Positions 1 to 45,207 of a DNA stretch of 64,000 nucleotides are shown one piece after another (the stretch's first letter is position 1; every line of letters starts with the position of its first letter). The notes under the pieces are model-generated. The model saw only the letters and a list, made by a program, of their open reading frames with translations. It was not told the origin of the DNA and did no database searches. The DNA comes from a virus. Location of the stretch: the IMG/VR virus record IMGVR_UViG_3300045116_000678, positions 18,903 through 82,902 of that record; one strand, given 5' to 3'. Position numbers and translations under genes: made by a program.

Positions 1-144
1 CCTCTGGAAGGGGTTGGCTCGATCGTACACCCGATTTAATTTTGTATGAAAAATATTCACAAAATAATTCGGTACCCCTTAGCCCCCCGGCAGCCTCGAG
101 TCTTGTAACCCTGCTACATTTCGTTGCAACAAACCGGAGCGAGC

Positions 145-759
145 ATGAGCACGTCGTTTGAGGACCTTGAACGCCGACCAGCGGCTGCAGTGCCCGCACC
201 GACCCTTCGCTTGGGCCGGCACGTGGTCGGGATGGCGTTCGCCGCCTTGGCCAACCCCATGCTGTACTTCGACAGCCGGCCGGTTTACCTGTGGGTCGCA
301 ACTTGGCTAGTCCCAGCGGTGGGCGCTGCATGCATCTTCGGGCTGCTCGCACTGTTCTTCACAGAGCGAGCGCGCCGATCCTGGCCCGGAAGCGCCATCA
401 TGTTGGCCTGGGTGCTGCTGGTCCTGCTACTTGTGGGCAACGGGATGAACTTCCGACAGATGCAGCAGGACGCAGCCGCGGCGCGCACGGCCGCGGGGCT
501 GAAACCTTTCACAGGGACCTTAGACACACCGCCAGCCCTAGCCGTGGCGCCACCTGCGCCTGCGGTCGACCCTGCCACTGCGGAGCACTACAAGCGCATC
601 TATGCCGCGCACCCGGACGCGAACGCTATTTCGGAGTCGCCGATGTTCCGTGCCTGGCTGGCTCGGAACTCCGATCGACAGAAAATATTCGATCAAGGAT
701 CCACCGAAGCGGTGATTGCCGTCTTCAGCGCCTACAAAGCCTCTGCCGGTCGCGATTAG
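145..759 (+). CDS. Membrane moron (about 3 TM) with C-terminal scaffolding-protein-like domain
   Basis: GGAG RBS then ATG 145; hydrophobic segments; Pro/Ala linker; HYKRIYAAHPDA..W..AVI..F..YKAS matches the scaffold ORF. Confidence 0.75.
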   Translation: MSTSFEDLERRPAAAVPAPTLRLGRHVVGMAFAALANPMLYFDSRPVYLWVATWLVPAVGAACIFGLLALFFTERARRSWPGSAIMLAWVLLVLLLVGNGMNFRQMQQDAAAARTAAGLKPFTGTLDTPPALAVAPPAPAVDPATAEHYKRIYAAHPDANAISESPMFRAWLARNSDRQKIFDQGSTEAVIAVFSAYKASAGRD

Positions 760-2708
760 GTCACGCCGGCGCGCTTTGCAGATCCGGGACCGAACTTGCT
801 TTCGAACTCCGCCGCCCGCTTCGGATTGCTCTTGAGCGAGGCGATGGCTTCAGCGTTTGGCACCGGCCACTGTTGCGGCGCCTGGTCCACTCGCTGCACG
901 TCCCCCGTCTGCTTGTTGTACCGGTAGACGCTGCCCTCGGTCGTGCTGCCGTCGGCGTTCTTCACCGCCGGCGTCACCTGCACGCCCCACTCCGACGGCG
1001 AGGACTTGCCCTGGATGGCCAGCAGCGCCGTCTGCGCGCGCGTGCGATCGGCCACCGAGGCCTTTGGGTCGAGCACCGTACGACGAAGCGACGCTTCATC
1101 CTGGGCCGCCGCGACCTGCGTGTCGCGCACCCGATTCTGGCCAGCGACCTCGTCGCGCCGGATCGCGTTGCTCTCGGCTGCGCGTCGATCCTCGGCGGCC
1201 ACGCGCTGCGTTTGCAACTGCGCCTGCTGCTGAGCGGCGATGGCATCGCGCTGGGCCTGCGTCCGGAAGCCCAGATCGGCCCGCTGCGTCTCAGCCGCCT
1301 GTCGCCCCGCTTCCATATCCGCTGCCGCTCGTGTCTGCACCGGCAGCGCCGCGGCGGCAATCGCGCCCTGGTCTGACGAGAAGCCGCGGCGAGGCGAGAA
1401 GGCGCCGCGCGCCGCGGCAGTGCGCATCGCGGCGCCGTCGAACATCGCCTGCGCAGCATCGGGCCCGGGGTTGCCGATCACCGACATGCCGCCAGGCTGG
1501 AACCCGAGTCCGCCGCCGGTGGCGCTGCGCGCCGCCAGCGTGTTCGCCGCGGCCATGTTCTGCGCGCTCACGGCGCCGCCCGGGCGAAAGCCTCGTGCCG
1601 CCTCCGGAGAATCGCCGTAGCTGTTGCCCGACCGAAACACACCGGGTGCTACTTCAGCAGCAGTTGCCGGTGCAGCGGCTGCCGGCGCTGCAGCGACGGC
1701 GGGCGTTGCGGCCGCACTCTGCGCCGGGGCGGCCATAGGAGCCGCAGCGCGGGGCGCAGCGGTCGCGGCAGCTGCAACGGCTGGTGCCGCAGCAGGCGCC
1801 GCGGTTTGCGCCGCGGCCGGGTCGAAGCCGAGGCCGAGGCCGGCACCAGAACGCTGCTGGTCCATGAACGGCGTCAGCGAGGTGGGGTCGGCGCCCGCAG
1901 GTACGAGCTTGGGCGCCAACGGCGCGGCATCGATGCCGGCGGCGCGCATGCCGCGCACGACGCTCTGGTCGTAGGCGTTCGCGGCGATACGCGCCGGGTA
2001 GGTGGTGGCATCCAGGATCCCTCGCCCCACCTTTTCGTTGAAACCCTTGGCGGTGTCCCATGCGGCGCCCACGGCCGCGCGATCGGCGCGCACCTGTGGA
2101 TCCGCATCCACGGGCGACGGTGCTGGGGCCGGTGCTGGCGCACCCATCGGTGCCGAGGCATACGGGCTGGGCGAGGGCTGCCGGTTGCCCGGGAAGGCGT
2201 TGTCCATGGTTGGGCCGGCGGCGACGCGCTGCGGCGCAGGCGCGGGGGATGGTGTGGCAATCTGCGTCGTGCCGGGCGTGCTGGCCGCTGCAGCGGCATC
2301 GCCGAAGGCGTTCGGGCGCTTGCGCTCGTCGTCGACCAGCCCGCCGTTGGCGAAGAACAGCTCCGGGTTGAAGCCCATTGGCCCGGCCACTGGCGTGTGC
2401 GTGGCGTCCTTGGCAGCATCCAGCGCCTGCACGCCGATGGCGTGGACCTGCTCCGGCGGGATCTCGAACTCGCCGTTGCTCAGGTGCACGTCGACCTTGC
2501 CTCCCTTCGGTCGAAACCCGCGCGCGCCGCCATTGCCAGCGCGCCGGAGGGCGTCATCGCCAATCTGCTCCGTGGAGTCAGCGGGCATGATGTAGCTGCC
2601 CTGCCGGACAGGCTTCTCGATGTCGTCCGATGTGCCACTGCCGGGACCGCGAACAGGGCCGCCATCGGCGTAGCGGTTCTTGGAGTGTTGAGGATGGAAC
2701 CCGAGCAT
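756..2708 (-). CDS. Internal virion / DNA ejection protein
   Basis: GAAGGA RBS before ATG 2708; YADGGPVRGPGSGTSDDI and LSNGEF motifs; Ala/Gln-rich; located after tail genes. Confidence 0.65.
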   Translation of the reverse strand: MLGFHPQHSKNRYADGGPVRGPGSGTSDDIEKPVRQGSYIMPADSTEQIGDDALRRAGNGGARGFRPKGGKVDVHLSNGEFEIPPEQVHAIGVQALDAAKDATHTPVAGPMGFNPELFFANGGLVDDERKRPNAFGDAAAAASTPGTTQIATPSPAPAPQRVAAGPTMDNAFPGNRQPSPSPYASAPMGAPAPAPAPSPVDADPQVRADRAAVGAAWDTAKGFNEKVGRGILDATTYPARIAANAYDQSVVRGMRAAGIDAAPLAPKLVPAGADPTSLTPFMDQQRSGAGLGLGFDPAAAQTAAPAAAPAVAAAATAAPRAAAPMAAPAQSAAATPAVAAAPAAAAPATAAEVAPGVFRSGNSYGDSPEAARGFRPGGAVSAQNMAAANTLAARSATGGGLGFQPGGMSVIGNPGPDAAQAMFDGAAMRTAAARGAFSPRRGFSSDQGAIAAAALPVQTRAAADMEAGRQAAETQRADLGFRTQAQRDAIAAQQQAQLQTQRVAAEDRRAAESNAIRRDEVAGQNRVRDTQVAAAQDEASLRRTVLDPKASVADRTRAQTALLAIQGKSSPSEWGVQVTPAVKNADGSTTEGSVYRYNKQTGDVQRVDQAPQQWPVPNAEAIASLKSNPKRAAEFESKFGPGSAKRAGVT

Positions 2709-2750
2709 GTTGTTTCCTTCGGCGGACGAAGTCCGCCCAGACTGAGCCCC

Positions 2751-2791
2751 ATCTTGGACTGTGGGCCTCAGGGGGGCGAACCCTAGAGGGG
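2751..2791 (-). promoter_or_regulatory. Late promoter copy 1
   Basis: CCCCTCTAGGG-N24-CAAGAT upstream of the ejection gene. Confidence 0.7.
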
Positions 2792-2793
2792 TG

Positions 2794-3819
2794 TCAGAGG
2801 CTGCTGCTGTCGTTACCGCTGATGGAAGCGCCGGCGCCAATGCCGTTCAGCGAGGCCGCCGCGGCGTCCGCAACCATCTTGGCGTGCGCGAGGGCCGCAT
2901 TCACGCGCTCGGTCAGCGTCTTGAGCTCGGCATCGAGGTTGGACCGCGAAGCGTCCAGCTTCAGCTGCGCATCGGTGATGGCAAGCCGCACTTTCGGCTC
3001 CAGCGCGGCCACCTCGGCTTGATACATCGCCGTGAGGCTGCGCGCGAGGTCGGTTTTCAGACCCACCAGGCCCGTCGCCAGCTGCATGGCAGTCTGTGGG
3101 CCCAGCACCAGCGTGCGGATGTAGTCGCCGGCGGCCGAGATGGCGCGCAGTCGAAGCTCGAGCACCTGCTGCACCGCGAACCGGGTGTTCTCCAGCTCGG
3201 CGCGGAAGGCGTTGATGGCGATGTCGCGGCTTTGCCCGGCCAGCTGGCGGCTGGCGTCGAGCCTGATGCCCTGCACGGCGCCTACCAGCGCACCAGGTGG
3301 AAGCGGGAAGCCGCGGTTGGCCCACGTGGCCATGGCCTCCGCCTCAGCCTGCGCGCTTTGCGCCAGGAAGCGGGCCTTGTCGCGCTCCCAGATCTGCCGC
3401 TCCACCTCGGCGTCGACGCCGGTGCCGCCGTCGATCGCGCGCTCCAGCCACGCCAGCGCCTTGTCCCAGAACGGCCCGGTGGGGAAGTTCTGCGACAGGA
3501 AGTCCTTGAAGCCCTGCTCGATCAGGTTCCCGATCTGCGCGTAGGCCTCGTCGTAGATCTCACGACCCTCTTCCGGGTCGGTGAGCGGCAGGTCGGGCTT
3601 CTCGGGCGGCAGATAGGAGGTATCCAGCACCGGCCCGGTGAGCTGCGGGGCATCCTCGGCCTCGGCCGCCGCGGCGTTGATGGCCGCGATCGCGTTGGTG
3701 AACCAGTTTTGCGCGTTCTCCCACTTGGCGTTGATGATGTAGGCGACGGTCGTTGGCGCTCCGACCCCGCCGCCTGGCTCGGGTACGGGGACGATGCCGC
3801 CAGGGGGTACGGTTGCCAT
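2794..3819 (-). CDS. Virion structural protein (helical)
   Basis: 341-aa ORF with GGAG RBS in tail operon. Confidence 0.65.
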   Translation of the reverse strand: MATVPPGGIVPVPEPGGGVGAPTTVAYIINAKWENAQNWFTNAIAAINAAAAEAEDAPQLTGPVLDTSYLPPEKPDLPLTDPEEGREIYDEAYAQIGNLIEQGFKDFLSQNFPTGPFWDKALAWLERAIDGGTGVDAEVERQIWERDKARFLAQSAQAEAEAMATWANRGFPLPPGALVGAVQGIRLDASRQLAGQSRDIAINAFRAELENTRFAVQQVLELRLRAISAAGDYIRTLVLGPQTAMQLATGLVGLKTDLARSLTAMYQAEVAALEPKVRLAITDAQLKLDASRSNLDAELKTLTERVNAALAHAKMVADAAAASLNGIGAGASISGNDSSSL

Positions 3820-12372: not shown

Positions 12373-13455
12373 TCAGAGTTGCCGGTTCAGGAAAGCCTCG
12401 ATCTGCGCGGGCGTCATGGATGCCATCCGCTCCGACATATCGGGGCCGCTCAATCCAGCGAGCTGCTCGTCCGCACTGAGCCCGGAGGGTCGGCCGCCCG
12501 GAAGGTCCGAGAGGCTGACCGGCACCGGCGTCGGTGCGGCTTGAGCCGCCGCCTTGGCCTGGGCCTTCACGTCGCCAGCGGGCGCCGTGTCGGCCTGGGC
12601 CGGAGCTCGTCCAGAGGACGCTTTGAAGGTGTCGAAGAGCTCGATGACCGCACCGGTGTCACCACCGGTCAGTACGTCGCGGTAGCCCGGCTGCGCGAAC
12701 TTGGGTTGCTTGGCAATCCAGTCCTGCAGCTCCTTGCTCTCGAAGATGGAATCGGCATCCGGGTGCGCCTTGTAGATCGCTTGGTAGTGCGCCTGGGTGT
12801 CGTTGGCGGCCTGCGACTGCTGGAAGGGCTTGAGCGCCTCCCCGACCTTCGCGTTCACCACCTCTGCCACCCGTGCCGCGACCTGCGCGTCCACCAGTTG
12901 CTGGATGCCTCTGGCCATCGCCTCCTCGGAGAAGTCCCCGAAAATCGCCGGGTCGACACCCTTGTCGATGGCCGCTTGCGCAGCCGCGACTTGGTTGTCC
13001 ACCGCGGTCGGCGCTTGTCCCGCGTCGACGCGCTGCTGGGCTTGGGCCCTGAGGCCTTCCAACTCCTTCAGCGCGGCGGCGTGGGCGCTTTCGGCCTGTT
13101 CGGCCTTCGCCTTCCATTGCTTCTCGCCGTCCCGCGCGGCCACCAGCTTCTCGTACGGGATGGTGTGGACACCATCCTTCGCCTGGATCACCGTCTTCGA
13201 CGGATCCTTCGGCTCGTCCAAGTCACCATCGGCGGCTGCCGCGGGCTTGCTCTCTTCCTTCGTCTGGTCCTTGACGCCGTCGGGGTTGGCTTCGCCTGCA
13301 GCAGGGGTCGCGTCGGGCTTCGCGTCCAGTTCCGGCTTGGTGCCGGTATCGCCCTGTTCGGCCAGTTCGAGGAGCTGGGCCGCCTGTTGCGGGGTGAGCG
13401 TGCCGTGCTCGGCGTGCTGCTGAATGAACTCGTCTTGTGCTGCTGTGATCGTCAT
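12373..13455 (-). CDS. Scaffolding protein
   Basis: Between portal and MCP; acidic/helical; KDGVHTIPYEKL; C-terminal SLSDLPGG...M. Confidence 0.8.
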   Translation of the reverse strand: MTITAAQDEFIQQHAEHGTLTPQQAAQLLELAEQGDTGTKPELDAKPDATPAAGEANPDGVKDQTKEESKPAAAADGDLDEPKDPSKTVIQAKDGVHTIPYEKLVAARDGEKQWKAKAEQAESAHAAALKELEGLRAQAQQRVDAGQAPTAVDNQVAAAQAAIDKGVDPAIFGDFSEEAMARGIQQLVDAQVAARVAEVVNAKVGEALKPFQQSQAANDTQAHYQAIYKAHPDADSIFESKELQDWIAKQPKFAQPGYRDVLTGGDTGAVIELFDTFKASSGRAPAQADTAPAGDVKAQAKAAAQAAPTPVPVSLSDLPGGRPSGLSADEQLAGLSGPDMSERMASMTPAQIEAFLNRQL

Positions 13456-13499
13456 GCCTGTCCCGCCACATGTCGCCGTGGCCGCAAGGGGCAGCATTT

Positions 13500-13626
13500 G
13501 GGTGGCAGGCACGGGCCGAAGCCCGCGCCCACAGCCCTCCAGCTATGGGAACCTCCTCTCGGAGGCTTTGCCGCACCATCACGGTGGGGCGCTTCGCCTT
13601 CGGCTTTCGCGTCTGGCTTGGGCTGC
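13500..13626 (-). ncRNA. Structured 5' leader RNA of the scaffold-capsid operon
   Basis: GCAGCCC/GGGCTGT closing stem enclosing three hairpins, then a 10-bp TTCG hairpin. Confidence 0.5.
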
Positions 13627-13667
13627 ACTTTGCCGGCACGCGGCGTGATCTGGAAACCCTACAGGGG
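13627..13667 (-). promoter_or_regulatory. Late promoter copy 3
   Basis: CCCCTGTAGGG-N24-CAAAGT. Confidence 0.7.
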
Positions 13668-13797
13668 GGCAGCTTTGACTGTGAGTCGCGCAAGCCATCA
13701 CGAACGCGCCAGCGGCCCGGCGGTTTAGCCTTTAGCACTTTCGCTTGACTCAGGAGACCAAAAAGAGGATTCTCACCGCGAGGACAAGGAGTAGAGT

Positions 13798-14904
13798 ATG
13801 AGAAGAACTTGGGTGCTTTTCTTACTGGCGTTTTCTAGCGTCTGGCTAGCCAGTTGCGGGTCGGACTATAAAAGGCCGCAACCTCCGCCCTTGGTCAAAT
13901 GCACTTCTGCAAAGGACTGCACTGACATACTTCCCATTGAGCAGAGTGTTTGCGGATGGAGCGCTGAATCCACGGTAGACACTGGCAAGTGGGGACGTGT
14001 TGGGGGGAGTCCGTCTTTGAACCAATGGCGACTCTACAACTTTGACGCACAGCGCGATGTTTCGGCGGTGGTCAAGGTTCACATCGAAACTCAATTGCCA
14101 GAAGCCCCCACCGAAAAATACATTCCGTATTTCCTCAAGGCGCGTCCCAAAGACGGCACTATCAAGGGGGGGCGTCCAGACTCAATCGACACAGCTGGAC
14201 CATACGCCTACCTCGGATGCGAGTGGGTTCGAAGAGTCGATAACACAATCATTCGGTACACGTACCAGGTAGTCAGCGCATGCTACGTGAACGACCCCAA
14301 CTGCCCGGCACAACCGCCCTATGAAAAGCCCGAGCAACGGCCTCCGGTTGAGGATGAGCTGGCTAGATGCGAGGTCGCATGCTCCAGCGGAGATCCGAGA
14401 AAATGCCTCGCCTACGATTTAAGCGCTCCTATCGCGTCAACACCAGCACGGCGGATGAATCAGATTGCCGTCCAGTTGCGTGACAACCCGATTCCATTCG
14501 GCGTAGACATGTCTCCGCTACTGGATGCAATTGACAACGCTACCGGGGCAAGCTGCAGAGGTCGGCAACTTACGATAGGTGAACAGGGGGAGGCGGTTGC
14601 GTTTGGGCAAGCCTGCAGGTTTCAGTTAGCCACTCCTGCAAAGACGCCCCCGGATCTTCAGCTCCTCATGCTGGACGTTCCAAACGTCGTGTCTGGTCAA
14701 TTCACGCGCGGAGCAACTGCGCCAGTGCTGCCCAAGATCCAGTGGAGCTCAGAGAATTCTCCGACCATTGACTACTATGCAAACGGATCCACTGGAGGCA
14801 AGACCGGCACCGAGTCGATAGCCGCAATCTACGTGGGAACATCAAGAATGCTGATCGCCGGAAAAGAGAAGTTCTGCGCCCGCGTCAACTACACCGGGGG
14901 CTGA
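13798..14904 (+). CDS. Cys-rich lipoprotein moron
   Basis: AAGGAG RBS; signal peptide with lipobox LASC; opposite strand; visibly lower GC. Confidence 0.75.
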   Translation: MRRTWVLFLLAFSSVWLASCGSDYKRPQPPPLVKCTSAKDCTDILPIEQSVCGWSAESTVDTGKWGRVGGSPSLNQWRLYNFDAQRDVSAVVKVHIETQLPEAPTEKYIPYFLKARPKDGTIKGGRPDSIDTAGPYAYLGCEWVRRVDNTIIRYTYQVVSACYVNDPNCPAQPPYEKPEQRPPVEDELARCEVACSSGDPRKCLAYDLSAPIASTPARRMNQIAVQLRDNPIPFGVDMSPLLDAIDNATGASCRGRQLTIGEQGEAVAFGQACRFQLATPAKTPPDLQLLMLDVPNVVSGQFTRGATAPVLPKIQWSSENSPTIDYYANGSTGGKTGTESIAAIYVGTSRMLIAGKEKFCARVNYTGG

Positions 14905-15472: not shown

Positions 15473-16285
15473 ATGCCCAAGAGAAACGCGAAGTTCTCCG
15501 TTCTACAGCCCGACCGCCTAAAGGAACTGGTGGAGGCAAATCAACGAGCGTTGAACAATCTCGCGGACGCACTTGAGAGGTTTTCTCCGGAACAACTGCC
15601 TTTCCTTGAGCCGGTGCGAGCCTCAGCAAATAGGGTTGCTCAGACGGCGCGTGAAGTCTCCGAGGCGTGGGATCAACTACCCAATGAGTACCGAGCCGCC
15701 TTGCTTGTTCTCGCGCACGAAGGGTGGTATTTCGACCTGGAAGCGATGGAGTTCGGAACGCCTCTTGAAATCGCAAACAGCTTTCAGTCCGGCGATAGAG
15801 AGACAGCCGAGACTCATCTTTGTGACCACTATCGCGATCGTCTAAATGAGATCGAACAGCAACTGACGAAGTGGTTTCCCTCGCGTTTGGCCATATTCAG
15901 AGATGCGTTTCGCGCCCATCGGCAGGGGCTCTATTTCGCGTCAATCCCTCTGTTGCTGTCGCAGATCGACGGCGTGTGCCATGACCTCTCAGACTATTAC
16001 TTCTTCACGAAGCCACGCGGTGAAAGACGGACTGGCGTGTCGCCATTCATCGAGCAGAAAGGTCTAAGCGAAATCAACTTGGCGTTGCTTGCGCCGTTGA
16101 TGGCTGAGCACAGCATCCTCCTAGGTGAAAACCGACGCCCAGCAAATTTCTCCCAGTTGAATAGACATCAGGTATTGCATGGGGAGTCGCTGGACTATGG
16201 AAGCGAGCTCAACAGCTTGCGCTCCATCTCGCTCCTTCACTATCTGGCGTCCTGCTTGCACTACTTCGTCCTTCGCAAGAATTAG
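15473..16285 (+). CDS. Moron with HEPN-like RxxxxH motif
   Basis: SIPLLLSQIDG...LNRHQVLHG; lower GC; opposite strand. Confidence 0.65.
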   Translation: MPKRNAKFSVLQPDRLKELVEANQRALNNLADALERFSPEQLPFLEPVRASANRVAQTAREVSEAWDQLPNEYRAALLVLAHEGWYFDLEAMEFGTPLEIANSFQSGDRETAETHLCDHYRDRLNEIEQQLTKWFPSRLAIFRDAFRAHRQGLYFASIPLLLSQIDGVCHDLSDYYFFTKPRGERRTGVSPFIEQKGLSEINLALLAPLMAEHSILLGENRRPANFSQLNRHQVLHGESLDYGSELNSLRSISLLHYLASCLHYFVLRKN

Positions 16286-18627: not shown

Positions 18628-20214
18628 TCAAAGACGCCAATCAGGCGCCATTCCTTCTTCTTCGTCGGCCGTGGCGGTGGCCGAATCGAGCATCCCGAGT
18701 TCCTTGGCCTGAGCCCACTGTCGGAAGGCGTCCGCGCCCTCGCTGCAGAGGTTCCCCTTCTCGGGCTGGTCCACGAACCGGCTCTGCGCGCGATTGAACT
18801 TCTTGCGGTAGCCATCCAGGCGCTGGATGCCCAGGGCGCAGGCCTTGCGGTCCAGGAAGGCGCCCTTCATGTGCTTGCGCGTCTGGTGGATGCCGGTCAT
18901 CAGCTCTGTGATGCGCGGCACGATCTCGAAGCGCTGGCCGGGCATCAGGTCGGCCAGCATTTCTTTCGTGCTGCGGTTGTAGTCGCCCAGGCGCTTGTGG
19001 TCAGCGTCGTGCGGCAGGAAGTGACGGCCGAAGACATAGCCGCGCTTCTGCAGCTCGGTGACGTAGTGCCGCAGGTCCTCGCCGCGGGCTTCGTAGTAGC
19101 CGATGAAGCGATCCTGGCCGCGCAGGTCCTGGTGGAACCACACCGCGCACCCGTCGCTGTTGCCGATGTCCCAGAAGGTGTTCACCGGCAGGTCCAGCAC
19201 CGGCACATCCGTGATGCCGCCGCGCTTGCGCAGCGCGGTCATGTCCTTGGCGTAGTAGTTCCCCTCGGTGCTGATCTGGAAGGCCTCGACCGGCGTCGAC
19301 GGGTACTCCTGCCACATCCGCTCCTCGCGCCCGGAGAAGTCGGCCTCCATCGTGGCGACATACCAAGCGCGCTGGTCGATGTCGATGGTGCAGTCCATCT
19401 CGACCTCGACCCGATCGAAGTAGTCGTGCTGCTCCGTGGTGATCGCCACGGACCGCGAGTCCATGCGGTACTTCGGCTCCTGCCACCAAGCGTAGAAGTG
19501 GAACCGGTAGTCGCGCGGCGTGAGGGGCAGCTTGCCAGCGTGCGCAGCCTCGGCGCGCTGCACCATCTCGAAGAACTCGCCTTCCCTGCCCTCGGCCGTG
19601 CTCTCGATGACCAGGATGCCGTTGAGCGGCACGGCGGGGATGGAGCCGGTGACGACCTCGGCCGCCTTGTCGGGGAACTTGGCGCAGATCTTCCCGAACT
19701 CGCTGACGTGCAGGCGGTGGATCGTGCCCGACCGCATGGACGTGGCGACGCGCACGCTGCTGTTGTTGTGCGCGAAAAGCAGTTCTGTCGCGCTGTCGCG
19801 TGCGAGAGGGAACCGCTCACGGATCTCGACTGGCAGGCTGTCGTAGGCGAACTTGACCTTGTCCCGGAAGATGACTTCGGCAGCCTCGCGGTCCTGGGCG
19901 ATGATCCCGCAGCGCTGGTCGGAATTGAACAGGGCGTGGTCCAGCCAAAGGATCGCGATCAGGGTGGTGAAGCCCAGCTGCCGCGCCTTCAGGATCAGGT
20001 TCCGGTGCCACAGACGACGCACGAACCGCCGCTGAGCGCGGTTGGGCCGGAAGGGCATGACCATGGCGTCGTCGCCGTCGTCGTCGCCCTTCACCATGAT
20101 CTTGTAGAGGCAGCCGCTGAAGACGCGCCACTCCGGGTCCGCCAGGCAGCGCGCCAGCTCCGCGGCGTTGGTCGGCAGCGGAAGGAGCGGCTCGTCGTGC
20201 GTGATGGTGGTCAC
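18628..20214 (-). CDS. terL: Terminase large subunit
   Basis: Walker A LKARQLGFTT, Walker B LHVSE, IESTAEG, nuclease WDIG..D, LPHD, GADAFR. Confidence 0.95.
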   Translation of the reverse strand: MTTITHDEPLLPLPTNAAELARCLADPEWRVFSGCLYKIMVKGDDDGDDAMVMPFRPNRAQRRFVRRLWHRNLILKARQLGFTTLIAILWLDHALFNSDQRCGIIAQDREAAEVIFRDKVKFAYDSLPVEIRERFPLARDSATELLFAHNNSSVRVATSMRSGTIHRLHVSEFGKICAKFPDKAAEVVTGSIPAVPLNGILVIESTAEGREGEFFEMVQRAEAAHAGKLPLTPRDYRFHFYAWWQEPKYRMDSRSVAITTEQHDYFDRVEVEMDCTIDIDQRAWYVATMEADFSGREERMWQEYPSTPVEAFQISTEGNYYAKDMTALRKRGGITDVPVLDLPVNTFWDIGNSDGCAVWFHQDLRGQDRFIGYYEARGEDLRHYVTELQKRGYVFGRHFLPHDADHKRLGDYNRSTKEMLADLMPGQRFEIVPRITELMTGIHQTRKHMKGAFLDRKACALGIQRLDGYRKKFNRAQSRFVDQPEKGNLCSEGADAFRQWAQAKELGMLDSATATADEEEGMAPDWRL

Positions 20215-43629: not shown

Positions 43630-43898
43630 GCGGCCTGTTCCTCACCGATGAAGAGGTCGACGACATGTGCGCCGGCCTGAGCACCAACGCTGTGAAGGTG
43701 CGCCGCCTGCGCGCCCTTGGCCTGGTGGTCAACGTGAAACCCAACGGGCGGCCCCTGATCGTGCGTTCGCACGCCGAGGCTGTCATGAGCGGCCGGCCCA
43801 AGATGGAAGCCGCCGCCCAGCCGCAGGAGGCCGAGCCGGCACCGGCCGCCAACACCGCCGGCATCGTGGCCCTCTTTGGCCGCAGGAAGGCTGCCTAA
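43626..43898 (+). CDS. Excisionase-like (DUF4224) protein
   Basis: FLTDEEV..L..G..NGRPLI; directly before integrase. Confidence 0.7.
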   Translation: MSGLFLTDEEVDDMCAGLSTNAVKVRRLRALGLVVNVKPNGRPLIVRSHAEAVMSGRPKMEAAAQPQEAEPAPAANTAGIVALFGRRKAA

Positions 43899-43899
43899 G

Positions 43900-45015
43900 A
43901 TGTGCTCCATGGGGCGACGCCGAAAGTTCGATGACGGACTCGAGCCGCGGGTCTACCTGAACCACGGCGCCTACTACTACGTCCACCAGAACGGCAAGTG
44001 GGAGCGGCTGGGCACCGACAAGGACGAGGCCAACCGCAAGGCCCGGATCCACAACGACCCGGGCAGCCTGTACGGCACGATGGTCTACTGGCTCGACCAG
44101 TTCCTGCTGCACTGCGAGGAGCGCGTGCGGCGCAAGACCATGAGCCAGCGCACGCTGGACGATTACCGGGACGCCATCCTGCCGCCGACCGAGACGCGGG
44201 CCAGGGGCGCCCTGCGGGTCTACTTCCCGCCGCCGCTGGCGCCGCAGCAGGTCACCCCCGCCATGGTGCAGAACTTCCTGGCCACCATGGCCGAGCTGGG
44301 CCGCCCCACCCCTGCCAACCGCGAGCGCGCCTGCCTTTCCGCGTGCTTCGGCTGGCTGCTGCGCACGGGCAAAGTGCCAGGGCTGGCCAGCAATCCGTGC
44401 CTGCGCTCGGCGGGCGTGCAGCGCAACGCCGAGAAGCGGCGCGCGCGCTACGTCACGCACGACGAGTTCCGCGAGGTATACGCCGTCGCCGGCGCCAGCG
44501 AGCGCCTGATGATGGAGCTGACGTACCGCACTCTGCAGCGCCCGGAAAGCGACATCGTTCTGTGGACATCGGCCAACCTGGTGATGGAGGCTGGCCGGCG
44601 CGTGCTGGTGCACGTCCAGAACAAGACCGGCACCGAGATCCGCATCGCCCTGCCCGACAGCGTCAACGCGCTGCTGGACCGCGCCCTGGGCACCGAGGCC
44701 AACGTCGTGCGGCTGCGGCAGCCGCTGGTGCAGCGCCTGGACGGCGAGAACTACACGTACGACGGCCTCAGCTCGATGCTGCGCCGGTCGATCGCCGTGG
44801 CCAACGAGCGGCGCCTGGCGCGCAAGCTCCCGCCCATGGCGTCCTTCGGCTTCCGCGACCTGAAGGGCAAGGGGGCCACCGACATGTGGCTGGCGGGCGT
44901 GCCGATCGAGCGCATCCAGCTGCTCTGCGGCCACAAGTCGAAGACCACCACCGAGGTCTACATCAAGCAGCGCTGGCGCGAGACGGCCCAGCCCAACATG
45001 GTCGAAGTCGGGTAG
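43900..45015 (+). CDS. int: Tyrosine integrase
   Basis: QRPESD, QNKTG, FRDLKGK, LCGH..TTEVY; adjacent to att. Confidence 0.9.
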   Translation: MCSMGRRRKFDDGLEPRVYLNHGAYYYVHQNGKWERLGTDKDEANRKARIHNDPGSLYGTMVYWLDQFLLHCEERVRRKTMSQRTLDDYRDAILPPTETRARGALRVYFPPPLAPQQVTPAMVQNFLATMAELGRPTPANRERACLSACFGWLLRTGKVPGLASNPCLRSAGVQRNAEKRRARYVTHDEFREVYAVAGASERLMMELTYRTLQRPESDIVLWTSANLVMEAGRRVLVHVQNKTGTEIRIALPDSVNALLDRALGTEANVVRLRQPLVQRLDGENYTYDGLSSMLRRSIAVANERRLARKLPPMASFGFRDLKGKGATDMWLAGVPIERIQLLCGHKSKTTTEVYIKQRWRETAQPNMVEVG

Positions 45016-45159
45016 CCTGCGCTGCCAAATATCCAGTGGTTTCGCACCCGGAATTGCACAAAAAATGTGCAGAAATGGGCCTCCGATCTGCTTCCAGTAT
45101 TTGGCAGTGACCGGCCCGATCTCCAGCATCCATGCGGGCTGCGGGCCCGAAACAACCGG

Positions 45160-45207
45160 GGACTGTTAATCCGTAGGTCCCTGGTTCGAGCCCAGGTCGG
45201 GGAGCCA
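45160..45207 (+). repeat. att site: 3' half of tRNA-Asn(GTT)
   Basis: GGACTGTTAATCCGTAGGTCCCTGGTTCGAGCCCAGGTCGGGGAGCCA with no 5' half upstream. Confidence 0.85.

Follow-up and report, generated by a model that had tools for sequence, protein, structure and literature searches.

A prophage membrane protein with a scaffold-related helical domain and its possible role as a SieA-like superinfection-exclusion decoy

Protein P0001, of 204 amino acids (aa), is encoded near the start of a 64,000-nucleotide stretch of viral DNA (positions 18,903 to 82,902 of record IMGVR_UViG_3300045116_000678; hereafter the window). The 82.9-kb record containing the window is a provirus, and P0001 is predicted to reside in the inner membrane of the lysogen; the phage is a temperate podovirus whose portal is of the P22 type and whose head module resembles that of F116/8P. 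The C-terminal domain of P0001 is homologous to a domain of P0002, the protein found at the scaffold position of the same phage, and before this domain P0001 bears a short peptide of a kind which, in most of the related phages studied, matches the N-terminus of a giant polyvalent protein. Our favoured explanation, to which we give about an even chance, is that P0001 is a SieA-like, periplasm-facing decoy for superinfection exclusion, whose expression, topology, binding partners and phenotype we infer.

A domain common to P0001 and the scaffold-position protein

The original prediction held that the C-terminus of P0001 aligns with the scaffold open reading frame (ORF) at about 40% identity. BLASTP confirmed this, with 26 of 64 positions identical (41%; 52.4 bits, E 1e-12) between residues 145–203 of P0001 and 239–302 of P0002, and the comparison with shuffled controls that had been proposed along with it gave a Smith-Waterman score of 121 versus 31.2 ± 4.9 when the domain was shuffled 2000 times (maximum 52; z = 18). 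When the whole window was translated in six frames, the scaffold ORF alone scored above noise against the domain, and a domain profile search of the 82.9-kb record yielded exactly two copies, those of P0001 and P0002. Of the two genes between which P0002 lies, the portal was recognized as PF16510 (4e-92) and the major head protein as phrog_334, and P0002 homologues hold the same position in phages 8P and F116. Regarding PHROGs, P0002 matched positions 7–331 of phrog_479 (E 1.7e-64), while residues 143–179 of P0001 matched positions 183–219 only (E 2.5e-4), and P0001 is not a full-length member of phrog_479. Apart from this weak domain match, no family for P0001 was found in Pfam, PADLOC or PHROGs; its weak Pfam matches (DUF6057, T4SS_TraI) were far below the cut-offs. 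A whole-model fold search of P0001 gave no convincing match, and a metagenome scan with the related protein P0004 found nothing.

The domain, named HY-x6-HPDA after its conserved residues, was defined by a six-sequence profile (A2), with which 1.84 billion entries were searched; 1433 cluster representatives reached E <= 1e-3, and 306 reached E <= 1e-10. All the near-invariant residues of the family (H148, I152, H156, P157, D158, A159, W171, G185, I191 and K198, in P0001 numbering) are kept in P0001, and AlphaFold2 (AF2) predicted five helices for its isolated domain, with a mean predicted local distance difference test (pLDDT) score of 90.6; both features place P0001 in the family. In the full-length model the pLDDT of the domain was 95–98. 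No Pfam model covering the domain was found. The Pfam entry PF28034, precomputed on the domain-bearing proteins P0009 and P0010, is probably due to the N-terminal part of these two, since P0003 and P0004, with the same C-terminal domain, have no Pfam entry. These sequences define HY-x6-HPDA as a large family without prior description, common to scaffold-position and exported prophage proteins.

Two forms of the family were distinguished among the best 150 profile matches. Sixty-four were soluble scaffold-like proteins, with the domain at about residues 200–275 followed by a tail of about 75 aa, and the remainder were membrane or secreted proteins in which the domain is C-terminal or nearly so. 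The former agree with the scaffold-position proteins of F116/8P-like phages (phrog_479; F116p42, 8P_005), which have the five-helix domain in common with P0001 and are soluble, coiled-coil-rich proteins of 330–380 aa in which it is internal. The latter join it to a variety of N-terminal partners: the RHxVG family with three transmembrane (TM) helices, to which P0001 belongs, a Sec signal peptide with a 6-Cys domain, DnaJ+RDD, T5orf172+TM, DUF2628+TM and other TM families, in addition to tandem repeats in secreted proteins (P0031, P0106 and P0122 hold 2–4 copies). The question raised beforehand, whether TM fusions recur in a profile search, is thereby answered in the affirmative, and the specific TM-peptide-domain architecture of P0001 is found in at least nine cluster representatives. 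As a separate observation, loci L063 and L074 (genomes G222 and G223) encode a different 3-TM family, of 169 aa, with a long, insertion-containing scaffold-like domain, which suggests an independent capture of the domain.

It had also been proposed that P0001 carries a copy of the scaffold domain of its own phage, exapted from it. The homology stands, but a recent exaptation does not. Scaffold copies are 68–71 aa long with a 5-aa insertion, and the others, including that of P0001, are about 65 aa long and lack it. In the phylogenetic tree, 63 of the 64 scaffold copies lie on one side of a split with a support of 0.96, and P0001 falls in the opposite clade, among the exported and membrane copies; the domain of P0002 is only 118th of 161 by tree distance from that of P0001. 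The copies closest to the P0001 domain occur in proteins with Sec signal peptides and a 6-Cys module, which are therefore exported. In addition, across 17 phages, moron domains (those encoded outside the scaffold gene) were as similar to the scaffold domain of their own phage (identity 0.295) as to those of other phages (0.292), and no gene conversion or co-evolution between the two copies was found. The two forms do travel together: of 17 viral records in which an exported or membrane copy occurs, 15 have a single additional copy, located in a scaffold-like frame of 312–413 aa, and the two exceptions are fragments 37–45% complete. Phages 8P and USP_18/25 were among the records matching the P0001 query, but through their scaffold genes alone; no TM copy was found there. 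The domain was carried by 5 of the 201 genomes searched in the host family of the Xenophilus relative described below, a sparse distribution consistent with a mobile-element origin.

Structural comparisons gave no convincing match of the domain to a solved structure. Foldseek against PDB gave no match at E <= 0.001, the best VIA-align result had a Z of 4.9 (FliG, rmsd (root mean square deviation) 7.2), and the ESM Atlas search returned only unnamed clusters. Galectin-1, a PDB sequence match in two stretches (i-Evalue 1.6 each), was rejected as a chance hit; galectin is a beta-sandwich and the domain is predicted to be all-helical. A J-domain-like reading of the 'HPD' residues was also discarded, as the helix order differs and no J-domain appeared among the structural matches.

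Concerning the N-terminal half of P0001, AF2 placed helices at residues 19–36, 47–72 and 80–116, and hydropathy peaked at residues 50–73 and 83–103. Both agree with the roughly three TM helices recognized beforehand, and the Pro/Ala linker noted with them is evident in the sequence. The module consists of TM1 with RHxVGMAxxALxNP, TM2, the K/R-rich loop T-E-R-A-R-R-S-W-P and TM3. Its homologues hold in common the invariant RHxVGMAxxALxNP...Y...W, a T-x-R-A-K/R-x-x-W-P loop and the third helix, and differ in their C-termini. In 12 family members the TM2–TM3 loop has 2–4 K/R and 0–1 acidic residues in 12 positions and is the most K/R-dense segment. Because of this, and because the closest relatives of the domain carry Sec signal peptides, P0001, with its three predicted TM helices, likely has a cytoplasmic N-terminus and a periplasmic C-terminus. 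This prediction accords with the earlier suggestion that the domain faces the periplasm, and disfavours the alternative once offered with it, a membrane tether for head assembly in the cytoplasm.

The gene is antisense to the late genes, as had been noticed, and its codon-position GC content is 0.66/0.53/0.73. It has a conserved promoter-like motif of its own. The core CCTGCTACATT(C/T) of this TGn-TACATT element could be aligned upstream of the start codon, at 15–40 nt from it, in 5 of 6 related loci that have nothing else alignable in their flanks, and it occurs once in the window. A simple promoter (sigma-70) and terminator scan gave no match at the P0001 upstream region, so the element is put forward as a putative promoter from its conservation. 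Between TACATT and the ribosome-binding site (window 118–144 and the equivalents in L010, L005 and L006), several loci contain a short inverted repeat (CCGTTGCAAGTCAACGG in the case of L010), which could be a 5'-untranslated-region hairpin or an operator.

A peptide held in common with the giant polyvalent protein

The P0001 gene occupies a conserved slot. The TM-module alignment led to 7 related loci, in all of which the TM-module gene lies in the same antisense place, between the gene of a giant polyvalent protein and that of p694, a probable ejection or internal virion protein, and meets the latter gene 3' end to 3' end. Homologues of p694 adjoin the slot in all the related phages examined, and forms with a signal peptide and Cys domain, as well as one other TM form, occupy it in the same way, convergent with the p694 homologue. 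The contigs of relatives aligned to window 1–3000 cover p694 and not the P0001 gene, gaps which prove no absence. A variable region of 1–5 kb, which in this phage contains a RosmerTA-type pair, separates the slot gene from the giant gene. The giant protein of this phage matches InPase (8e-46), MuF_C (2.8e-19) and LPD1 (1e-16) in Pfam and exceeds 2000 aa, which assigns it to the large polyvalent proteins.

Apart from G222 and G223, whose giant proteins showed no obvious N-terminal tandem peptide, every related phage examined has a giant protein starting with a short peptide, of a type specific to the phage, present twice within about 45 residues; in the phage studied here, two NFFDQ[YF]D copies lie in the first 30 residues. 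In 15 of 18 metagenomic phages, the linker or the tail of the slot occupant carries a peptide of 7–10 aa matching this tandem peptide of the phage's own giant protein, with 8 peptide types and 4 anchor architectures represented (Table 1). The best 7-mer score averaged 32.7 for own pairs versus 21.3 ± 5.0 for non-own pairs, it reached 29 or more in 15 of the 18 own pairs, and none of 100,000 permutations attained the observed own-pair mean (p < 1e-5). The motifs were found nowhere else in ORFs of at least 100 aa of these loci or of the 82.9-kb record. In L010, for instance, the slot gene ends in PFTYEEA and its giant protein has PFSYDDA and GFSYEDA. Nucleotide identity is limited to the motif, with synonymous differences inside it (in L006, 5 of the 7 motif codons differ synonymously), which indicates that the similarity is maintained in the proteins and not as DNA; for the same reasons, the common peptide was judged not to stem from an inverted DNA repeat or a shufflon. 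The secreted forms are near-identical as far as the HY-HPDA domain reaches; beyond it their peptide-bearing tails diverge, some of them with two types.

Table 1. Peptide types of the giant protein and slot gene, and C-terminal modules of p694 found with them.
Peptide type	Motif	Phages	p694 module (phages)
A	NFFDQFD	L006	alpha (own phage, L006)
B	WWKxGAK	L004, G213, G218	beta (L004, G218)
C	KPFxGxLD	L005, G219; G208 weakly	gamma (L005, G219)
D	DWEKG	L008, L009	delta (L008, L009)
E	[FI]SYE[DE]A	L010, G220, G221	epsilon (L010, G220, G221)
F	NPFxDPDYG	G211, G214	alpha (G211, G214)
G	SEIExxLKxAPxY	G212	zeta (G212)
H	FDPSTA	G217	eta (G217)

The cultured phage phiC725A, which is F116-like, is the nineteenth phage and adds a ninth peptide type. 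In its genome, the product of an unannotated antisense ORF (L154, LT603684.1, 45.1–45.5 kb) has a signal peptide and a Cys-rich domain and ends in KKPWEEY, and its giant 'internal virion polymerase' of 3787 aa begins with two copies of KPWEEF. Unannotated ORFs homologous to this one are also present in LKA5, E220, JBD90, F1Pa and Atpa001.

In P0001 the peptide is LKPFTGTLD, the sole occurrence in the 82.9-kb record, which is conserved in P0004 and P0006. This region is identical in 9 of 10 positions to the second peptide of the giant proteins of G208 and G219, so that P0001 is predicted to be specific for other phages and not for its own type. The tandem N-terminal peptide of giant polyvalent proteins may be a docking or assembly signal.

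The last ~40 residues of the p694 homologues form a swappable module as well. At least 7 types of it were recognized across the related phages, TM-form and signal-peptide-form phages alike, mostly following the peptide type of the giant protein and slot gene (Table 1); the own genome combines a type A giant protein with p694 alpha. Comparison with the 92–95% identical Xenophilus prophage, whose slot-gene TM module is 81% identical to that of P0001, revealed that the slot gene breaks after TM3, and that the tail of P0001 and the last ~42 aa of p694 have been replaced. P0001 is thus a recombinant. This prophage (L010; Xenophilus aerolatus CP166702.1, 2.72–2.74 Mb) is 92–98% identical in the region from the giant gene to the p719 homologue. 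No match to p312, p232 or the head or scaffold genes was obtained in it, nor any HY-HPDA domain in the whole Xenophilus genome, and it is probably a remnant truncated after the p719 homologue.

Possible function of P0001 and competing explanations

The closest parallel of P0001 is SieA of phage P22, a prophage-encoded inner-membrane protein of 164 aa with three TM helices; hydropathy and AF2 predict the same kind of small, roughly 3-TM protein here. P22 sieA (13336–13830, minus strand) is antisense to gene 16, which ends at 13313 on the plus strand, 23 nt apart, and has its own promoter. The P0001 gene is also antisense and convergent with the abutting p694, a putative ejection gene, their stop codons overlapping, and has its putative promoter in the conserved TGn-TACATT element. 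SieA prevents the injection of DNA, and escape mutations are located in the C-terminal parts of ejection proteins gp16 and gp20 (PMC10883804). Here it is the C-terminal module of p694 that mostly co-varies with the displayed peptide. In contrast to P0001, SieA lacks a scaffold-like domain and has not been reported to carry a mimicry peptide, and its motif FxRYPxEAxxFNK (types A–C) is absent from the P0001 sequence. The likeness is by analogy one of position and architecture, not of family membership.

According to our proposal, a lysogen would express P0001 as an inner-membrane decoy from its own promoter-like motif, and the extracytoplasmic part would display LKPFTGTLD and the 65-aa five-helix domain paralogous to that of the scaffold-position protein. 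During infection by a related phage, as its internal proteins are ejected into the periplasm, the P0001 peptide would compete with the N-terminal peptide of the incoming giant protein for its partner, of which the variable C-terminal module of the p694-type protein is the best candidate. The trans-envelope DNA conduit would then not be assembled and injection would be blocked, resulting in superinfection exclusion. The HY-HPDA domain might dimerise the decoy, mimicking two tandem peptides, or bind a conserved part of the ejection apparatus. A role as decoy in superinfection exclusion had already been suggested for P0001, on the grounds of its scaffold-like copy; independent support for it now comes from the mimicry of the giant-protein peptide and the sieA-like position of the gene. 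We hold more tentatively, somewhat below an even chance, the general form of this proposal, in which temperate phages of the F116/8P/P22-portal type would keep in one antisense slot modular, periplasm-displayed decoys with interchangeable anchors (3-TM, secreted 6-Cys, DnaJ-RDD). Their hypervariable peptide of 7–10 aa would copy the docking peptide of the giant protein, the p694-type C-terminal module would be the receptor, the peptide would set which phages are excluded, and the HY-HPDA domain would provide bivalency or binding to the conserved ejection machinery.

Several points weigh against this explanation. The peptide of P0001 is of type C and its own giant protein is of type A; this is one of three non-matches, L007 being also mismatched and G208 matching weakly. 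The pairing of p694 modules with peptides is not strictly one-to-one, as alpha occurs with both A and F, and the three elements lie within about 2–8 kb, so that linkage alone could explain the co-variation of p694, although it leaves unexplained an identical peptide on two different proteins. The HY-HPDA domain co-varies neither with the peptide type nor with the resident scaffold; as a type-specific peptide receptor it is disfavoured, since the same scaffold domain is found with types G and C and the domain of the signal-peptide forms is near-constant across types. The topology was deduced from the positive-inside rule and from analogy, and in the same 12 family members the segment after TM3 also has 1–3 K/R. 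That p694 and the giant protein are ejected was deduced from family annotation. A look-up among RNA runs found none that contains the locus. Finally, no similarity was detectable between P0001 and P22 SieA by BLASTP (E 0.19), and no sequence homology between p694 and P22 gp16.

That the domain is a generic oligomerisation module, and P0001 a lysogenic-conversion membrane protein with another envelope function whose peptide docks a host periplasmic factor, seems to us unlikely. Its fusion to many unrelated N-terminal modules and its tandem repeats suit such a module, as do its lack of co-variation with scaffold or peptide type and its dispensability in many slot occupants. So does the finding of near-identical copies of domain plus tail on different anchors (P0009 and P0012). 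This explanation leaves unaccounted for the tracking of the giant protein of the same phage by the peptide over 8–9 types, and the presence of a scaffold copy in nearly all the records with an exported or membrane copy. If instead the C-terminus were cytoplasmic, P0001 might interfere with head assembly or tether it, as an abortive-infection scaffold decoy or as a capsid-targeting mimic competing for encapsidation. T4 capsid-targeting sequences are N-terminal targeting peptides of internal proteins, which the N-terminal peptide of the giant protein recalls; the scaffold paralogy, the mildly positive segment after TM3 and the even number of TM helices given by a crude predictor for some DnaJ-RDD forms are also compatible with this orientation. 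We consider it quite improbable, given that the signal-peptide 6-Cys forms with the same domain and peptides must be exported and that the TM2–TM3 loop is the most K/R-dense segment; moreover, mimicking the own type would sabotage the own assembly after induction.

A service of P0001 to its own lytic cycle, either in lysis timing or in a T4 Imm/Sp-like exclusion of secondary infection during lytic growth, would fit its three TM helices, its small size, the location of its gene inside the late region and the usual matching of the peptide to the own giant protein. Nevertheless, the gene is antisense to the late operon with its own conserved promoter-like element, the matching records 8P and USP_18/25 gave no TM copy, and the surrounding hotspot holds defence genes, all of which makes this role very improbable. 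It is extremely improbable that the C-terminal part is functionless recombination debris, a mosaic joint that brought in domain and peptide. The break after TM3 relative to the Xenophilus prophage, beyond which the rest is unrelated, and the mismatch of the peptide with the own giant protein could be so read, but the domain is 91% identical between P0001 and P0004 when the whole proteins are 73% identical, the architecture recurs in other cluster representatives, and all near-invariant residues are kept in a domain of high AF2 confidence.

Superinfection exclusion at the injection step is widespread, but how it works at the molecular level is poorly understood; in the case of P22 SieA, genetic targets are all that is known. 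Should the decoy explanation be correct, it would provide a molecular logic for SieA-like exclusion, peptide mimicry with a three-way arms-race cassette, and would pinpoint an interaction needed for building the DNA-delivery conduit. It predicts that specificity is determined by a copied linear peptide, of 8–9 types, with the p694 C-terminal module as likely partner, and the unannotated ORFs of the cultured F116-like Pseudomonas aeruginosa phages offer a tractable system. Envelope-anchored phage proteins such as Ltp of S. thermophilus TP-J34, HK97 gp15 and T4 Imm/Sp reportedly engage the incoming DNA-delivery machinery through their extracytoplasmic part. To our knowledge, none of them copies a peptide of an ejected protein or has a scaffold-protein domain. 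The mimicked giant protein belongs by its Pfam matches to the large polyvalent proteins (LPD1, MuF_C, InPase), and we are not aware of any account of tandem peptides at the N-termini of such proteins, or of a neighbour gene mimicking them, no literature search having been aimed at this. As far as our searches and knowledge go, the pattern of slot-bound putative decoys copying a giant-protein peptide, with a co-varying neighbour module and a domain family lacking description, is new.

Neighbouring genes and coordinates

The coordinates of the features are collected in Table 2. Just upstream of the window lies a two-gene RosmerTA-type cassette of lower GC content (0.58), in which a protein with XRE-HTH and M78/IrrE peptidase domains matches RmrA (E 2e-66). 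The other gene encodes a protein of 202 aa with no family match, presumably the toxin partner. As the divergent neighbour of P0001 is a RosmerTA-type defence gene, the region is therefore a defence hotspot.

Table 2. Features of the P0001 region and related genes. Positions are those of the window unless preceded by G000:C1.
Feature	Position	Strand	Remarks
Promoter-like element TGn-TACATT, extended -10 type (putative)	111..130	+	15-34 nt upstream of the P0001 start codon
Ribosome-binding site GGAG	136..139	+	5 nt before ATG; read from the sequence
P0001 coding sequence, 204 aa	145..759	+	stop codon 757-759; stop-free frame; ATG at 145 as start backed by the conserved N-terminus of homologues and by GGAG 5 nt before
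3-TM module, residues 19-103	199..453	+	AF2 helices, hydropathy, invariant residues, loop charge
LKPFTGTLD motif, type C, residues 119-127	499..525	+	copies the tandem N-terminal peptide of the L005, G219 and G208 giant proteins
Pro/Ala-rich linker, residues 128-139	526..561	+	AF2 pLDDT 70-76
Five-helix HY-x6-HPDA domain, 65 aa, residues 140-204	562..756	+	exported/membrane clade
p694 (phrog_11341), probable ejection/internal virion protein	756..2840	-	convergent with P0001; stop codons overlap
C-terminal module of p694 (variable; alpha type), last ~42 aa	759..884	-	breakpoint against the 95%-identical Xenophilus prophage at window 885
Scaffold-position protein P0002, 379 aa (phrog_479)	12373..13512	-	between P22-type portal and major head protein
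HY-x6-HPDA copy of P0002, 70 aa, residues 234-303	12604..12813	-	scaffold clade; 5-aa insertion
Giant polyvalent protein, 2814 aa	G000:C1:8686-17130	-	outside the window; type A peptide
RosmerTA-type cassette, two genes	G000:C1:17215-18894 (L003 17215-18285, 18286-18894)	-	just upstream of the window; divergent from P0001

Two further morons, at window 13798–14904 and 15473–16285 (both plus strand), are antisense between the portal and scaffold genes. Neither had a Pfam or PADLOC match, and the first has a lipoprotein-like signal start (…LASCGS…). At window 43783–45207, a 448-aa ORF (minus strand) abuts a tRNA-Asn (45129–45207), the position expected for an integrase, with the GC content dropping to 0.56–0.62 beyond; it had no Pfam match and an integrase was not identified there. 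In G208, the 427-aa DnaJ-RDD membrane protein with an HY-HPDA domain (L018; IMGVR_UViG_2882925227_000002, 52.4–63.0 kb) is encoded directly after the integrase and near the giant gene, and the record yielded no p694 homologue. A signal-peptide protein found elsewhere bears the near-identical domain and tail (P0009 versus P0012), which shows recent module shuffling.

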